45,218 nucleotides of DNA. It comes from an uncultured Candidatus Saccharibacteria bacterium (GTDB taxonomy: Bacteria; Patescibacteriota; Minisyncoccia; Phycocordibacterales; UBA9973). Every line of letters starts with the position of its first letter. Position 1 is the stretch's first letter. Shown here piece by piece: positions 3,573 through 11,829 of this stretch. The notes under the pieces are model-generated. The model worked only from the letters and a program-made list of their open reading frames with translations, was not told the DNA's origin and made no database searches. The stretch lies in contig CAZPJV010000002.1 in NCBI GenBank assembly GCA_964586975.1, positions 1-45,218 on the forward strand, written 5' to 3'. The position numbers and the translations under genes were made by a program.

Positions 3573-3637
3573 ATTTAAAGTATACTCCTCTTTTTGCGAT
3601 TTTTTGGAAAATAAGATAAAATGGCGAAGCATCATTT

Positions 3638-3702
3638 GGCCCTATCGTCCCTCGGCCGTAGCCCAAGGCTACTAGGCCTATGGGCGAGGCTAACGGTTAG
3701 GA
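3638..3702 (+). other. Truncated tRNA-Glu 5' half with a 41-nt hairpin insertion in the D-loop
   Basis: GGCCCTATCGTC (3638-3649) plus TAACGGTTAGGA (3691-3702) equal nt 1-24 of the intact tRNA-Glu at 3940-3963. They are interrupted by CCTCGGCCGTAGCCCAAGGCTACTAGGCCTATGGGCGAGGC, which has an outer stem CCTCG/CGAGG and an inner hairpin GTAGCC-CAA-GGCTAC. Confidence 0.85.
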
Positions 3703-3706
3703 TTTT

Positions 3707-3961
3707 ATGCATATAGTTTATGTATTAAAAAGTTTGAAGGATAATAATTTATACATAGGTTGTACCTCCAATTTTGACAAAAGATTGGACTATCACAATA
3801 CCGGAAAAGTTGATTCAACAAAAAATCGCAGACCATTCATCCTGGTATATAAAGAAGAATATGATAGTATCTATGAAGCTTTCCGTGCTGAGAAATTTTA
3901 CAAAACAGCAATGGGGAAAAGAAAATTGAAAGAAAAATTGGCCCTATCGTCTAACGGTTAG
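3707..3961 (+). CDS. GIY-YIG nuclease family protein (84 aa, domain only)
   Basis: N-terminal VYVLKS...LYIGCTSNFDKRLDYHN pattern (GIY...YIG...R...H-N) plus a downstream conserved E/K region. The last 7 codons and the stop are encoded by the 5' end of tRNA-Glu. Confidence 0.85.
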   Translation: MHIVYVLKSLKDNNLYIGCTSNFDKRLDYHNTGKVDSTKNRRPFILVYKEEYDSIYEAFRAEKFYKTAMGKRKLKEKLALSSNG

Positions 3962-4011
3962 GACATCGGCTTTTCAAGCCGGTAATCCGGGTTCGATTCC
4001 CGGTAGGGTCA
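3940..4011 (+). tRNA. tRNA-Glu (anticodon TTC), no encoded CCA
   Basis: Acceptor GGCCCTA/TAGGGTC, anticodon loop TTTTCAA, T arm CCGGG-TTCGATT-CCCGG, discriminator A. Confidence 0.9.
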
Positions 4012-4138
4012 CACCTCATATTACACCACATTTATCACACCCTGACAAACTGGAGTTTGTAGGGGTGTTGGTTTGTAGAAAAAATTTTTGCAAAACAAAA
4101 CCCCGCAAAAGAGTTCAGGACCCTAAACTGCGGGGTCG

Positions 4139-4170
4139 CCAGGCACAATGCCTGTGATTTTTTAAAAAAG
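4139..4170 (+). terminator. Possible rho-independent terminator after tRNA-Glu
   Basis: Hairpin CAGGC-ACAA-GCCTG followed by TGATTTTTT. It is preceded by a second hairpin, CCCCGCA...TGCGGGG (4100-4136). Confidence 0.4.
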
Positions 4171-4230
4171 AACTCTTGGCTCTCCCCGCTCCGAACTCGC
4201 TTTGTCGGAGCGGGAGTCTCGCGCGCGACC

Positions 4231-4572
4231 TCACTCGCCGGATGACTGCCGGAAAGTCATGTGCGCCGGGTCGTTAGACTGCCACCGGCGACGCTCCTCG
4301 GCGAGGCCAGAGGTCGCAGGCTCCGCTGGGTCCAGCACAGCGGTCGGGATACCGCTCGGGGCCGCTTCGTACTCCGGAACTTCCACGAGCACGTCGTCCC
4401 CACCCAACTCCCAGTCCTCATGCCAGAGGAAGTATCCGACTCTGTACCCAACAGCCAATAGACACCACCCACGATCGGCCGTCGAAGACAGCCTGCCCTC
4501 GAGGATGCTCCCGTCCCGACGGTGGCATCTCACCACTTTCCCAAACAGCAGACTCCACTCTCGTGTGTGCAT
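4231..4572 (-). CDS. Hypothetical protein (113 aa), strongly GC-rich relative to neighbours
   Basis: Shine-Dalgarno GGAGGTG lies 6 nt before the ATG. Third codon positions are G/C-rich. A hairpin CTCCCGCTCCGA/TCGGAGCGGGAG (4182-4216) follows the stop. The overlapping plus-strand ORF 4202..4615 is S/R/P-rich and looks like frame noise. Confidence 0.6.
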   Translation of the reverse strand: MHTREWSLLFGKVVRCHRRDGSILEGRLSSTADRGWCLLAVGYRVGYFLWHEDWELGGDDVLVEVPEYEAAPSGIPTAVLDPAEPATSGLAEERRRWQSNDPAHMTFRQSSGE

Positions 4573-4604
4573 TCTACACCTCCAGAATTTTTATAACATT
4601 AAAC

Positions 4605-4634
4605 TGGACAATTAGCAATAATCCCCTGTATAAT
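4605..4634 (+). promoter_or_regulatory. Sigma70-like promoter (-35 TGGACA, 18-nt spacer, -10 TATAAT)
   Basis: TGGACA at 4605-4610 and TATAAT at 4629-4634. The ATG at 4643 is only 8 nt past the -10, so the mRNA is probably leaderless. Confidence 0.55.
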
Positions 4635-4642
4635 CAAAAAAC

Positions 4643-6653: not shown

Positions 6654-6703
6654 GCGCGTAGCTCAGCTTGCCCCGCCTGAACTAGGCGGGGTGAAGTAGA
6701 GCG
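6654..6703 (+). other. tRNA D-arm-like fragment A with hairpin inserted in the D-loop
   Basis: GCGCGTAGCTCAGCTTG[CCCCGCCTGAACTAGGCGGGG]TGAAGTAGAGCG. The flanks resemble tRNA positions about 1-25 and no anticodon arm follows. Confidence 0.7.
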
Positions 6704-6734: not shown

Positions 6735-6808
6735 GGGCGGTTAGCTCATTTGGCTAGAGCGCGTCGTTGACGTCGACGAGGTAACAAGTTCGAGTCTTGT
6801 ACCGCCCA
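6735..6808 (+). tRNA. tRNA-Val (anticodon GAC), no encoded CCA
   Basis: Acceptor GGGCGGT/ACCGCCC, anticodon stem CGTCG/CGACG with loop TTGACGT, T arm ACAAG-TTCGAGT-CTTGT, discriminator A. Confidence 0.9.
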
Positions 6809-6809
6809 C

Positions 6810-7079
6810 ATGAGTTGTTATGTATATTTGATTCAAAGCAGTTTAGATAAGAGTTTCTATGTTGGCATATCTGAAGATCCATTTAAACGTCTTCATGAGC
6901 ATAATAGCGGTAAATTAAAAAGTACTTCAAGAAAGAAACCATATGCCATGATTTATACAAAAGAATATCCAGATTATAAATCTGCAAGGAAACACGAAAT
7001 TTGGTTGAAAAAGAAAAATTTAAATTATAAATTAAGGTTAGCTCAGCTTGCCCCGCCTAGTTCAGGTGGGGTAAACTAG
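6810..7079 (+). CDS. GIY-YIG nuclease family protein (89 aa, domain only)
   Basis: CYVYLIQS...FYVGISEDPFKRLHEHN pattern. The ATG begins 2 nt after the tRNA-Val discriminator base. The C-terminal 14 codons read through tRNA-like fragment B. Confidence 0.85.
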   Translation: MSCYVYLIQSSLDKSFYVGISEDPFKRLHEHNSGKLKSTSRKKPYAMIYTKEYPDYKSARKHEIWLKKKNLNYKLRLAQLAPPSSGGVN

Positions 7080-7100
7080 AGCGACCTCTTGACGTGTGTC
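7035..7100 (+). other. Degenerate tRNA-Val-like 5' fragment B with hairpin in the D-loop
   Basis: GGTTAGCTCAGCTTG[CCCCGCCTAGTTCAGGTGGGG]TAAACTAGAGCGACCTCTTGACGTG. The D-arm flanks match fragment A and tRNA-Val. TTGAC recalls the Val anticodon loop, but no stem or 3' half follows. Confidence 0.65.
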
Positions 7101-7103
7101 TTT

Positions 7104-8255
7104 ATGAGAATTTTAAGCATTGAAACGAGTTGCGACGAAACCAGTATCGCAGTTATGAAAGCCACGGGCGGTATAACCGATGCTTCGTTCAGAGTGCTGG
7201 CGCATGAAATTTCTTCGCAGGCGGCAATGCACTCTCCTTTCGGCGGGGTTTACCCCTCGCTGGCCAAACGCGAGCATATAAAAAATCTTCCTCTACTTCT
7301 TAATAAAATCCTGAAAAAATTAAAAACTAAAAAAATTGACTTGATTGCGGTCACTTCCGGCCCGGGACTGGAACCGGCATTATGGACCGGCATAGTTTTT
7401 GCGCAGGAACTCGCCAGAAAATGGAAGGTGCCCTTGATACCGGTAAATCATATGGAAGGGCATATCTTTTCTACTTTTGCTAAGGCGGAAAAAAAATTCC
7501 AAATTCCCAATGCCAAATTCCCAATGCTTGCCCTGCTAGTTTCCGGCGGACACACCCAACTCGTGCTTTCAAACCGGTGGCTCAACTATAAAATAATCGG
7601 CGAGACGCTGGATGACGCGGTCGGCGAGGCCTATGACAAGGTTGCGCGGATGCTCGGCTTGCCCTACCCCGGCGGGCCGGAAATTTCAAAGTTAGCGGAG
7701 CAGCTAAGGGCAGAGGGAAAACAATTTTTACGGGGTGTCTCGCAGGCCGACGGGCCGAGAGGCAGCGCTCCGCGAGCACGCGGAGACAGCGACCCCGCAA
7801 AGATTGGTTTTCCCATAGCCCTCCCCCGCCCGATGCTCAAGAGCAAAAATTTTAATTTTTCATATTCTGGGCTAAAAACCGCAGTGCTTTATTTAATAAA
7901 AAAAATTAGCAAATTGGATAAAAAAACCAAAGCGCAAATCGCTCTGGAGTTTGAAAATGCGGCGATTGAATGCCTGACCTATAAAACCGCCCGGGCGATA
8001 GAAAAATATAAAATTAAAACTCTGGTAGTCGGCGGCGGAGTTTCCGCCAACACGCATTTAAAAAGAGAAATCACCCGCCTTCGCCAAGGCTTCGGACGGG
8101 CAAGAAAAAATCTCAAAATTTTCTTTCCGCCGAAAGAACTAACGGGCGACAACGCGCTGATGATAGGCATCGCCGGTTATCTAAATTATTTGAAAAATAA
8201 GAAAAAAGTTCCAAAACCGGAAAGCATAAAAGCGGATGGAAATTTGAGCTTATAG
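7104..8255 (+). CDS. tsaD: tRNA N6-adenosine threonylcarbamoyltransferase TsaD
   Basis: MRILSIETSCDETS start, and the HMEGH, GGHT and GGGVSAN motifs. The ORF-track start at 7089 (TTG) lies in the tRNA-like fragment, so I prefer ATG 7104. It contains an in-frame insertion of about 25 aa before the PRPM motif. Confidence 0.9.
   Translation: MRILSIETSCDETSIAVMKATGGITDASFRVLAHEISSQAAMHSPFGGVYPSLAKREHIKNLPLLLNKILKKLKTKKIDLIAVTSGPGLEPALWTGIVFAQELARKWKVPLIPVNHMEGHIFSTFAKAEKKFQIPNAKFPMLALLVSGGHTQLVLSNRWLNYKIIGETLDDAVGEAYDKVARMLGLPYPGGPEISKLAEQLRAEGKQFLRGVSQADGPRGSAPRARGDSDPAKIGFPIALPRPMLKSKNFNFSYSGLKTAVLYLIKKISKLDKKTKAQIALEFENAAIECLTYKTARAIEKYKIKTLVVGGGVSANTHLKREITRLRQGFGRARKNLKIFFPPKELTGDNALMIGIAGYLNYLKNKKKVPKPESIKADGNLSL
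7728..7801. repeat. GC-rich imperfect palindrome inserted in frame in tsaD
   Basis: Arms TTACGGGGTGTCTCGC and GCGGAGACAGCGACCCCGCAA. It encodes LRGVSQADGPRGSAPRARGDSDPAK, which is absent from E. coli TsaD between GGP..L and FPRPM. Confidence 0.6.
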
Positions 8256-11753: not shown

Positions 11754-11829
11754 TGGTGCCTAGGGGCAGGATTGCACTGCCGACCCTTCGCTCTTCAGGC
11801 GAATGCTCTACTAACTGAGCTACCTAGGC
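11754..11829 (-). tRNA. tRNA-Phe (anticodon GAA), CCA encoded, atypical T-loop
   Basis: Acceptor GCCTAGG/CCTAGGC, anticodon loop CTGAAGA, discriminator A plus CCA. The T arm is GGCAG-TGCAATC-CTGCC, with G where U55 is normally invariant. Confidence 0.85.

Follow-up and report, generated by a model that had tools for sequence, protein, structure and literature searches.

Why should the first 24 nucleotides (nt) of a tRNA gene occur twice in close succession, once in an intact gene and once split by a hairpin, with a very small nuclease gene filling the space between the two copies? This question is raised by the tRNA-Glu locus on contig CAZPJV010000002.1 of an uncultured Candidatus Saccharibacteria bacterium (assembly GCA_964586975.1), of which we analyzed positions 1 to 45,218, referred to here as the window. 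The original prediction, made from the letters of the window, saw in this locus the footprint of a nuclease cassette that targets or duplicates the 5' half of the tRNA. Our analysis of the locus, of a second one at a tRNA-Val gene and of their relatives in other assemblies leads us to conclude, with high confidence, that at both loci a tRNA gene has received a very small selfish cassette that includes its cognate palindrome. It is well supported that the cassette measures roughly 300 bases and has two co-evolving parts, a promoterless gene for a GIY-YIG protein of 80-90 amino acids (aa) and a GC-rich imperfect palindrome that is specific to each nuclease clade.

The tRNA-Glu locus

The intact gene, tRNA-Glu(UUC), was located by ARAGORN at positions 3940 to 4012, and the Rfam tRNA model places it at 3940-4011 with a score of 65.5 bits; all features of the two loci described here lie on the forward strand. 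A repeat finder showed that nt 1-24 of this tRNA, plus two bases upstream, are present twice. The exact direct repeat TTGGCCCTATCGTC occurs at 3636-3649 and 3938-3951, in register with a second exact repeat, CTAACGGTTAGGA, at 3690-3702 and 3951-3963. The upstream, dead copy has a left arm made up of tRNA-Glu nt 1-12 (GGCCCTATCGTC, 3638-3649, an exact repeat of 3940-3951) and a right arm made up of nt 13-24 (TAACGGTTAGGA, 3691-3702, an exact repeat of 3952-3963). Between the arms, after tRNA nt 12, lies a 41-nt insert (3650-3690) that consists of a palindrome of the form CCTCGGCCGTAG-variable centre-CTATGGGCGAGG(C), which we call type A. The left arm agrees with the local tRNA allele in relatives as well. 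Both the duplication and the split of the upstream copy had been proposed for this locus, and the in-register repeats confirm them exactly.

The insert has a predicted folding energy of -23 kcal/mol (z = -3.0), in keeping with the stable structure first suggested. Its inner hairpin, GTAGCC-CAA-GGCTAC, had been read as lying within an outer stem; it does exist in the sequence, but it competes with the outer helix that is shared family-wide, CCTCG-G-CCGTAG / CTATGG-G-CGAGG. No Rfam family matched at 3638-3706, even at E <= 1, and only tRNAs reached the gathering score.

An open reading frame (ORF) of 84 codons, ORF1, occupies the space between the two copies (3707-3961) and encodes a single-domain GIY-YIG protein of the UPF0213/Slx1/Ssn type (Pfam PF01541). 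As had been noted, its ATG lies 4 nt past the dead copy, and the AGGA at 3699-3702 would serve as its Shine-Dalgarno sequence. At its other end, the stop codon and the last residues are encoded by the first 22 nt of tRNA-Glu. The first base of the tRNA, G3940, is the third base of codon 78, so that six full codons, rather than the seven counted earlier, and the TAG stop (3959-3961) lie inside the mature tRNA.

Consensus scans found a promoter-like site upstream of these features (TTGCGA, 17-nt spacer, TAAAAT; 3594-3622; 9/12 matches) and a terminator-like hairpin with a T-run downstream of them (4140-4163). The promoter-like site ends 16 nt upstream of the split tRNA-Glu copy and is presumably the original tRNA-Glu promoter, which would now drive the fragment, the ORF and the tRNA jointly; the terminator-like hairpin likely marks the end of this transcription unit. 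Because nt 1-24 of tRNA-Glu are present twice, a complete tRNA-Glu has been restored 3' of the ORF. It is likewise well supported that the hairpin-split, nonfunctional 5' fragment stays beside the original promoter.

The mini-nuclease

Pfam assigns residues 1-73 of the ORF1 product to the GIY-YIG family (PF01541, E = 7.7e-15), and nothing was found beyond the catalytic domain. The AlphaFold2 model (predicted local distance difference test score of 91) shows one compact domain with a beta-beta-alpha-beta-alpha-alpha fold. The proposal that the nuclease is domain-only thus holds for both the Pfam span and the modeled structure. Five residues, Y5, Y16, R26, H30 and E62, are invariant among 20 diverse relatives, and they include the catalytic Tyr, Tyr, Arg and Glu.

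Foldseek ranked 1zg2 (BH0048, UPF0213) first and the Slx1 nuclease domain next, with template modeling scores of 0.62-0.67, while the catalytic domain of I-TevI was a weak structural match (E = 0.24). The nearest solved relatives by phmmer were also UPF0213 proteins, BH0048 and EF2693 (E = 1.4e-6 and 1.8e-6), which belong to a family without established function. An NCBIfam search returned no informative family for the mini-nuclease, and the score against TIGR01453 was under the cut-off.

The tRNA-Val locus

A second locus in the window had been predicted to have a related architecture. It does contain a related cassette, but its layout differs from that of the tRNA-Glu locus: an intact tRNA-Val and a second nuclease ORF lie between two hairpin-bearing tRNA-Val fragments, and the intact tRNA, as in the relatives of this locus, is a separate gene ahead of the ORF. 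The first fragment (6654-6703) is the 5' part of an older tRNA-Val allele, GCGCGTAGCTCAG ... TAGAGCG, with a palindrome of another type, type C, in its D-loop (6667-6696); its predicted fold is -28.5 kcal/mol (z = -4.1). The intact tRNA-Val(GAC), found by both ARAGORN and Rfam, follows at 6735-6809 and is probably a replacement gene brought by the cassette.

ORF2 (6810-7079) starts at the first base after tRNA-Val. It encodes an 89-aa GIY-YIG protein, detected by Pfam, that belongs to a second clade and shares 34% identity with that of ORF1. Its stop codon lies within the second tRNA-Val fragment, just beyond the palindrome, and the conserved C-terminal AQLAPP of the ORF2 clade is the translation of the D-arm and hairpin. 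This second fragment (7036-7095) is what remains of the older tRNA-Val, beginning at about nt 7 and including the anticodon loop; a type C palindrome forms its D-loop hairpin at 7047-7076. A deletion has removed the 3' half of this copy as far as the tsaD start at 7104.

The loops of the two type C hairpins are reverse-complementary (TGAACTA at 6678-6684 and TAGTTCA at 7058-7064), and their stems and outer flanks have the same orientation. A loop flip-flop of this kind would be expected if the hairpins had been extruded from DNA as hairpins or cruciforms.

The 45-kb window holds just two GIY-YIG ORFs, both of which abut tRNAs, and both palindromes are confined to the two cassettes. No GC-rich palindromes were found near the other four tRNAs of the window.

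Association with tRNA genes among relatives

The names of its homologues assign the window to the Patescibacteria. We collected 92 related loci (designated by L numbers), 5 from genomes, 80 from metagenomes and 7 from exact-protein look-ups, and analyzed them with HMMER and ARAGORN. The genome loci came from a single-protein query and the metagenome loci from a query with an alignment of the ORF1 clade. Distances were counted for the 87 mini-ORFs with at least 300 nt of sequence on each side. A tRNA lies within 100 nt of 65 of these 87 ORFs, and in all 65 it is on the same strand, so that the association between mini GIY-YIG ORFs and tRNA genes predicted from the window extends to its relatives. 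Sixty ORFs have a tRNA downstream; the stop codon is inside the tRNA in 46 of them and just ahead of it in the other 14, which indicates that this overlap is not obligatory. An ORF that comes after a tRNA is seen in 20 cases.

The tRNAs involved are diverse (Glu, Gln, Asn, Leu, Ser, Cys, His, Lys, Gly, Thr, Arg, Tyr, Val, Phe, Met and Pro). Of 91 ORFs left after redundancy was removed, 41 are bordered, on the side away from the tRNA, by a partial copy of that tRNA with a hairpin splitting it; 16 have a degenerate or unsplit copy, and the order tRNA-hairpin-ORF is found for 10. Five more of the 91 have no tRNA and are tightly bounded by inverted repeats of 15-17 nt. Other phyla are represented by a gammaproteobacterial assembly (L004) and two Bacteroidota assemblies (L005 and L006). 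A search of a phage database with ORF1 gave three weak matches only and no evident phage link.

In the tRNA-less clades (L048, L072, L081 and L086, with the ORF at about 1501-1750, and L073 and L076), the ORF lies between conserved 15-17-nt inverted repeats (ACCCCGTTAGATGAAAA ... TTTCTATCTAACGGGGT), whose arms are of the kind seen in the palindromes of the other clades. Four tRNA-less loci have a conserved upstream hairpin in common, and in L086 an ORF-less palindrome with similar arms lies 45 nt downstream. This arrangement resembles an autonomous element accompanied by a miniature derivative.

The contig of L087 bears two loci of interest. One is a tRNA-Val cassette homologous to that of the window, together with a tsaD homologue. 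The other, at 486-803 on the reverse strand, is a tRNA-Glu with a GIY-YIG ORF from another clade ahead of it, and no type A palindrome was detected there. One tRNA can therefore host different cassette lineages.

Palindrome types and nuclease clades

The palindromes that adjoin the ORFs are 19-69 nt long and fall into four main classes, A to D. Type A, which includes the tRNA-Glu locus of the window, has the form CCTCGGCCGTAG-variable centre-CTACGGGCGAGG and sits at nt 12 of Glu and Gln copies. Type B is the 20-nt sequence CCTGCCTGCCGGCAGGCAGG, which is found in Asn, Leu, Lys and His copies at several positions and sometimes twice per copy. Type C (CTTG-CCCCGCC-loop-GGCGGGG-TRAAG), which includes the tRNA-Val locus of the window, occupies the D-loop of Val, Phe and Thr copies, and type D (YCTCGTC-variable helix-GAGACGG) lies between the tRNA 3' end and the ORF. 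When compared with a neighbor-joining tree of the proteins, nuclease clade, palindrome type and tRNA class shift together.

Conservation of the palindromes points in the same direction. Both 12-nt arms of type A and the G.G mismatch between them are identical in 24 of 24 sequence variants from Glu and Gln loci, at a distance where synonymous sites of the Glu-clade ORFs are near saturation (synonymous divergence, dS, of 0.6-2.3). These ORFs are themselves under purifying selection, with ratios of nonsynonymous to synonymous divergence (dN/dS) of 0.06-0.28. Type D palindromes keep their flanks and swap whole inner helices, and self-complementarity is always maintained. Type A also has a preferred orientation (27 forward and 3 reverse). 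Because the arms are invariant while synonymous sites are saturated, and because palindrome and tRNA class are specific to the nuclease clade, we regard the hairpin as a cognate cis element and not as a late inactivating insertion. The original prediction had held that the hairpin inactivated the old target copy at a later stage, and this part of it has to be given up in favor of a conserved part of the cassette. Judged from these alignments, the hairpin is a selected, asymmetric element paired with a particular nuclease clade.

The placement of the palindrome varies: it may lie 5' or 3' of the ORF, form inverted repeats around it or occur by itself in a tRNA copy of full length. At the two loci of the window the arms have few mismatches, and on the sense strand these are G.T. 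Over all variants, however, the mismatch types (G.T versus A.C) gave no clear sense-strand bias, and this signal does not suffice to tell an RNA or sense-strand hairpin apart from recognition of double-stranded DNA (dsDNA).

Several unusual forms were also observed. Upstream of the ORF in L016 (1356-1460) and L018 (5-109), at least three type A palindromes follow one another in tandem every 40 nt, and L021 has a nested 69-nt form. A reverse-oriented palindrome is located at nt 7 in L037, L038 and L044, and the palindrome abuts a quasi-palindromic GATCGTC in either orientation. In L090 and L091 (1465-1966), the D-loop and the variable loop of the old tRNA-Thr copy each contain a palindrome, and a 23S_rRNA_IVP gene (PF05635) follows about 150 nt downstream of the cassette.

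Four other origins for the inserts were considered and rejected. A P-nucleotide-like palindrome made from its flanks was ruled out by the presence of the same palindrome in different tRNAs, and an intrinsic terminator by hairpins that lack a following T-run. The old copies in the window are truncated, which rules out a split or permuted functional tRNA, and a group I intron is ruled out by the lack of an Rfam match and by a unit that is too short.

Insertion, stacking and replacement

Related genomes differ in the presence of the cassette. The tRNA-Glu genes of the related genomes L095 and L096, located via the neighboring phosphoribosyltransferase gene, are cassette-free; these nearest relatives are 71-73% identical and are thus related but not conspecific. 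The reverse case is provided by tRNA-Phe, which has no cassette in the window (11754-11829, reverse strand). In L088 (1121-1522), tRNA-Phe is followed by a GIY-YIG ORF and then by a nearly full-length tRNA-Phe copy with a D-loop hairpin, and L088 also has a glutaredoxin gene and a tRNA-Arg(CCT) nearby, as does the window. Units may also accumulate: L045 corresponds to L046 with a second, stacked unit whose ORF is decayed, and L079 has two units ahead of tRNA-Cys. Taken with the same-strand association in 65 of 65 cases, the empty sites and the stacked unit bear out the original view that a nuclease cassette tied to tRNA genes left behind the duplicated, dead 5' half.

The targets change within clades. 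A single ORF clade contains UUC and CUC isoacceptors side by side, and CUG is likewise mixed with UUG; the genes around the Glu loci show no conserved order. Insertion is at nt 12 in all Glu and Gln copies, in the D-loop of Val, Phe and Thr copies, and at the 3' end of Gly, Thr and Arg copies. The arms of a split copy differ from their own tRNA allele by 0-1 mismatch in 23 nt and from other alleles by 3-4; in L025 the split copy tracks its own allele down to compensatory changes in the D-stem.

Loci of the ORF2 clade show another outcome. The intact and the split tRNA of L087 and L090 are different alleles, which suggests that the intact tRNA arrived with the cassette. The 5' piece of the window's tRNA-Val locus is also present in L087, where it pairs with the 3' end of the old copy that lies downstream. 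Since the 5' and 3' pieces that flank the tRNA and ORF unit still pair as one acceptor stem, a resident tRNA was interrupted and the replacement gene probably came with the cassette. At tRNA-Gln, L044 (1400-1960) has a composite layout. Its order is a split tRNA-Gln copy with a reverse palindrome at nt 7, the ORF, a new tRNA-Gln and a 14-nt spacer, followed by a full-length old tRNA-Gln allele with only a palindrome at nt 12.

Other features of the window

A solo palindrome, ACCCCGCA-N21-TGCGGGGT, lies just 3' of tRNA-Glu at 4100-4136. It is similar to the 15-nt inverted repeats (ACCCCGCACATAAAA) around the GIY-YIG ORF in L073 and L076 and may be a relic, without an ORF, of a different type of cassette. 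The stretch at 4160-4640, which separates the tRNA-Glu terminator from the gene that follows, is GC-rich and has long ORFs on both strands; it gave no Pfam or Rfam match. The small ORFs just upstream of the window's tRNA-Phe and tRNA-Arg were considered as further cassettes and proved to be ordinary genes (a glutaredoxin gene and an unannotated 85-aa ORF).

Proposed mechanism

Our preferred explanation is that the two loci represent a mobile nuclease/hairpin cassette of the Ssn kind that targets tRNA genes. Ssn proteins were characterized in 2025 as the first site-specific single-stranded DNA (ssDNA) endonucleases; they bind a lineage-specific hairpin repeat (NTS/SRM) as ssDNA only and in one orientation, and cleave a few nt 5' of it (PMC11893778). 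As a whole, this explanation seems to us probable, with room for doubt. The specific route of mobilization, which is drawn by analogy with Ssn, deserves markedly less confidence.

On this model the ORF would be carried on the tRNA transcript, using the tRNA promoter, with a ribosome-binding site supplied by D-arm sequence. Since the stop codon usually lies inside the tRNA, RNase P processing (at 3940 in the window) would truncate the mRNA, deprive it of its stop codon and thereby limit the level of nuclease. The original suggestion that tRNA maturation and nuclease translation would be mutually exclusive is a reasonable one. The nuclease may bind its own palindrome as a hairpin on single-stranded sense DNA and nick a few nt 5' of the hairpin, hence inside the tRNA-derived arm; the conserved orientation and G.G mismatch of type A lend indirect support to such strand-specific recognition. 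Replication, transcription or uptake by natural transformation could supply the ssDNA. The break, together with tRNA homology on both sides of the hairpin, would then stimulate homologous recombination in which the partner is that same tRNA gene in intact form. Synthesis-dependent strand annealing or double-strand-break repair could yield every architecture seen, namely a cassette with a rebuilt tRNA, a hairpin-only insertion, stacked units and hairpins on both sides of a carried tRNA. The same route could also replace the resident tRNA by a carried one. We propose that tRNA genes are favored targets because of their homology, which is conserved across genomes, and their strong promoters.

Alternative explanations

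How well do other explanations account for the same observations? A chance repeat is excluded by two collinear exact matches within 330 nt and by the same arrangement in more than 40 independent assemblies. Although the window derives from a metagenome assembly, the upstream 24-nt match is not an assembly error, since the identical sequence is present in a second, independent assembly (L001) and the same architecture recurs in dozens of unrelated ones; the likelihood of an artefact or coincidence is close to nil. A classical free-standing homing endonuclease is a more substantial competitor. Such an enzyme, similar to SegB, would cut the dsDNA of an uninterrupted tRNA gene at the D-arm, repair from an element-bearing donor would follow, and the palindrome would do no more than confer immunity, by dividing the recognition site of the leftover copy. 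The fixed insertion position within each clade agrees with homing, and SegB offers a precedent for recognition of a conserved tRNA motif. Synthesis-dependent strand annealing from element-bearing donors would moreover reproduce all architectures, palindrome-only insertions included. Yet the protein has no DNA-binding domain, characterized single-domain relatives do not cut dsDNA (PMC11893778), and type B palindromes occur at several positions. The palindrome would also give no protection, given that the intact tRNA regenerates the supposed target and that stacking shows repeat hits. Nor would a mere spacer call for arms that stay unchanged while dS reaches saturation, for a mismatch and an orientation that are conserved, or for a sequence peculiar to each clade. 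We therefore consider homing of this kind unlikely.

The remaining two alternatives assign the hairpin or the whole module a role in the host or in RNA. DNA uptake is widely attributed to Patescibacteria, and a domesticated, immobile module could practice Ssn-like restriction of ssDNA, shielding tRNA loci from recombination with DNA that enters the cell; it would be vertically inherited and the duplicates would be old scars. The strong purifying selection on the ORF fits this idea, as does the finding that SsnA lowers the integration of transforming DNA that bears the hairpin (PMC11893778). It is nonetheless improbable in view of the empty and filled sites, the stacked and decayed units, the switches of isoacceptor and tRNA type, the replacement alleles and the non-syntenic genes that flank the loci. 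In addition, although synonymous divergence between cassettes is saturated, the split copies are still nearly identical to their local tRNA, a pattern that speaks for recent or repeated events. Slimmer still are the chances that the hairpin-split tRNA half works as RNA, whether as a 5' leader for mRNA stability or processing, as a guard against misfolding with the real tRNA, or in recruiting or guiding the nuclease. Several features would suit an RNA. The half in question is invariably found on the transcribed strand and follows immediately on a promoter-like site, its arms agree with the local tRNA, predicted folds stack the hairpin on the D-stem, and the window's mismatches are of the G.T type described above. 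It is not a fixed 5' leader, however, since in some loci the palindrome follows the ORF or occurs on both sides of it. Rfam gave no match, sequence conservation in the arms goes beyond what pairing requires, and no clear sense-strand mismatch bias is seen over all variants; SsnA, for its part, does not bind RNA (PMC11893778).

Several points weigh against the mobile Ssn-like cassette, our preferred explanation. About 14% of relatives show no tRNA within 200 nt. The specificity for ssDNA and the cut site are extrapolated from Ssn, and the likeness to Ssn consists of architecture and residue spacing, while the nearest solved relatives are UPF0213 proteins. The SRM consensus HGTCWYN(0-2)YYVSBRHN(0-5)WNVSBRGN(0-2)RNCYNB matches 0 of 108 ORF neighborhoods and has no match in the window either. 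The clean entry of a 20-nt palindrome at different positions of the tRNA copies, without target-site duplication, is not explained by a hydrolytic nuclease on its own, and a nick in the element-bearing chromosome alone would favor loss of the cassette over its gain. The rebuilt tRNA, finally, stays an insertion target.

A bolder reading, which we put forward tentatively and rate as doubtful, is that the cassettes form a previously unrecognized class of autonomous mobile elements of about 300 bp that are ssDNA-based and encode only a hydrolytic GIY-YIG protein. The hairpin would be the handle and the tRNA arms the homology guide that steers both the break and recombination to the matching tRNA gene, and some elements would carry a tRNA and disable the resident one by hairpin-only insertion, making the host dependent on them. 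Arms that act as a DNA homology guide would parallel the two-oligonucleotide, DNA-guided cleavage reported for Ssn (PMC11893778).

Implications

Rebuilding or replacing the tRNA is one way for a parasite to occupy an essential single-copy tRNA gene in a tiny genome. Cassettes of this type would explain stray pseudo-tRNA fragments in Patescibacteria and in the sampled Bacteroidota and gammaproteobacterial assemblies, as well as many small "GIY-YIG nuclease family protein" annotations beside tRNAs in those same groups. They also offer many natural nuclease-hairpin pairs as possible ssDNA tools, and because they supply a defined natural target, the question of mobility could be tested with a few oligonucleotides.

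Comparison with known systems

The closest counterpart is the Ssn module. SsnA of Neisseria meningitidis is a single-domain GIY-YIG protein of 94 aa, and ssn genes are typically bounded by cognate hairpins, an arrangement that the authors call identical to insertion sequences and that led them to suggest a domesticated mobile element (Chenal et al., Nat Commun 2025, PMC11893778). The proteins described here are likewise single-domain, about 85-95 aa long and without a DNA-binding domain. The spacing of catalytic residues is equal (Y5, Y16 and E62 here; Y6, Y17 and E64, the residues mutated in SsnA), and both systems have a lineage-specific, asymmetric and oriented hairpin repeat of 20-50 nt beside or around the gene. 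Types A and D have CGTC directly 5' of the hairpin and type A has a C after it, as in NTS. The systems differ in that the hairpins here are embedded in tRNA copies, with partial or complete duplication keeping the tRNA functional, and in that the 45-kb window shows no sign of hundreds of dispersed repeats. The Ssn paper mentions neither tRNAs nor Patescibacteria (PMC11893778). Its authors only speculated that the hairpin-gene-hairpin unit was once mobile, and left open its role outside Neisseria and the origin of the repeats (PMC11893778). The tRNA-embedded cassettes provide direct genomic evidence of recent insertion, stacking, decay and target switching.

SegB of phages T4 and T6 is a GIY-YIG nuclease that recognizes a tRNA T-loop motif, cuts dsDNA and drives recombination-dependent tandem amplification of tRNA and segB (PMC2330249, PMC13096335). 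It shares with the cassettes a GIY-YIG gene among tRNA genes, a conserved tRNA motif as target and a tendency to spread with neighboring tRNAs. The phage protein is larger, about 220 aa with a DNA-binding region, and has neither a cognate palindrome nor a hairpin-split tRNA copy. Neither the work on Ssn nor that on SegB describes a nuclease gene embedded in a tRNA gene that is then rebuilt. In collaborative homing, an ORF-less insertion shields the target of a neighboring free-standing endonuclease, as with F-CphI and the psbA intron. There too the nuclease gene is outside the interrupting element, which occupies the target position in a gene. In that case, however, a self-splicing intron keeps the gene working, whereas a copy interrupted by the palindrome is dead and a second one takes over its function.

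Elements of the IS200/IS605 and REP/RAYT groups resemble the cassettes in their recognition of single-strand hairpins, in ORF-less hairpins beside ORF-bearing units and in the lack of target-site duplication. They differ in using HUH/Y1 transposases with covalent intermediates. No HUH/Y1 transposase is present in the unit described here, of which the GIY-YIG protein is the sole ORF, and since this enzyme is hydrolytic, host functions would be required to join the strands. Integrative elements with tRNA genes as their insertion sites also carry a tRNA segment that restores the gene and leave a partial tRNA copy at their other end. They are kilobases long, encode integrases and usually restore the 3' part, whereas the cassette, at about 300 bp and without a recombinase, either restores the 5' part or supplies an entire tRNA, and its leftover copy contains a palindrome.

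Within the same bacterial group, GIY-YIG ORFs have been described in non-intron insertions of rRNA genes of the Candidate Phyla Radiation (Patescibacteria) (PMC11270868). These are also small GIY-YIG ORFs in structural RNA genes, often at stem-loop tips, and not group I or II introns, but the report describes no tRNA link, duplication or cognate palindrome (PMC11270868). We found no description of a tRNA-embedded nuclease/hairpin design in the searchable literature. The element is best classed with the Ssn-type nuclease/hairpin modules, as a new variant that targets tRNA genes and recalls SegB in its behavior.

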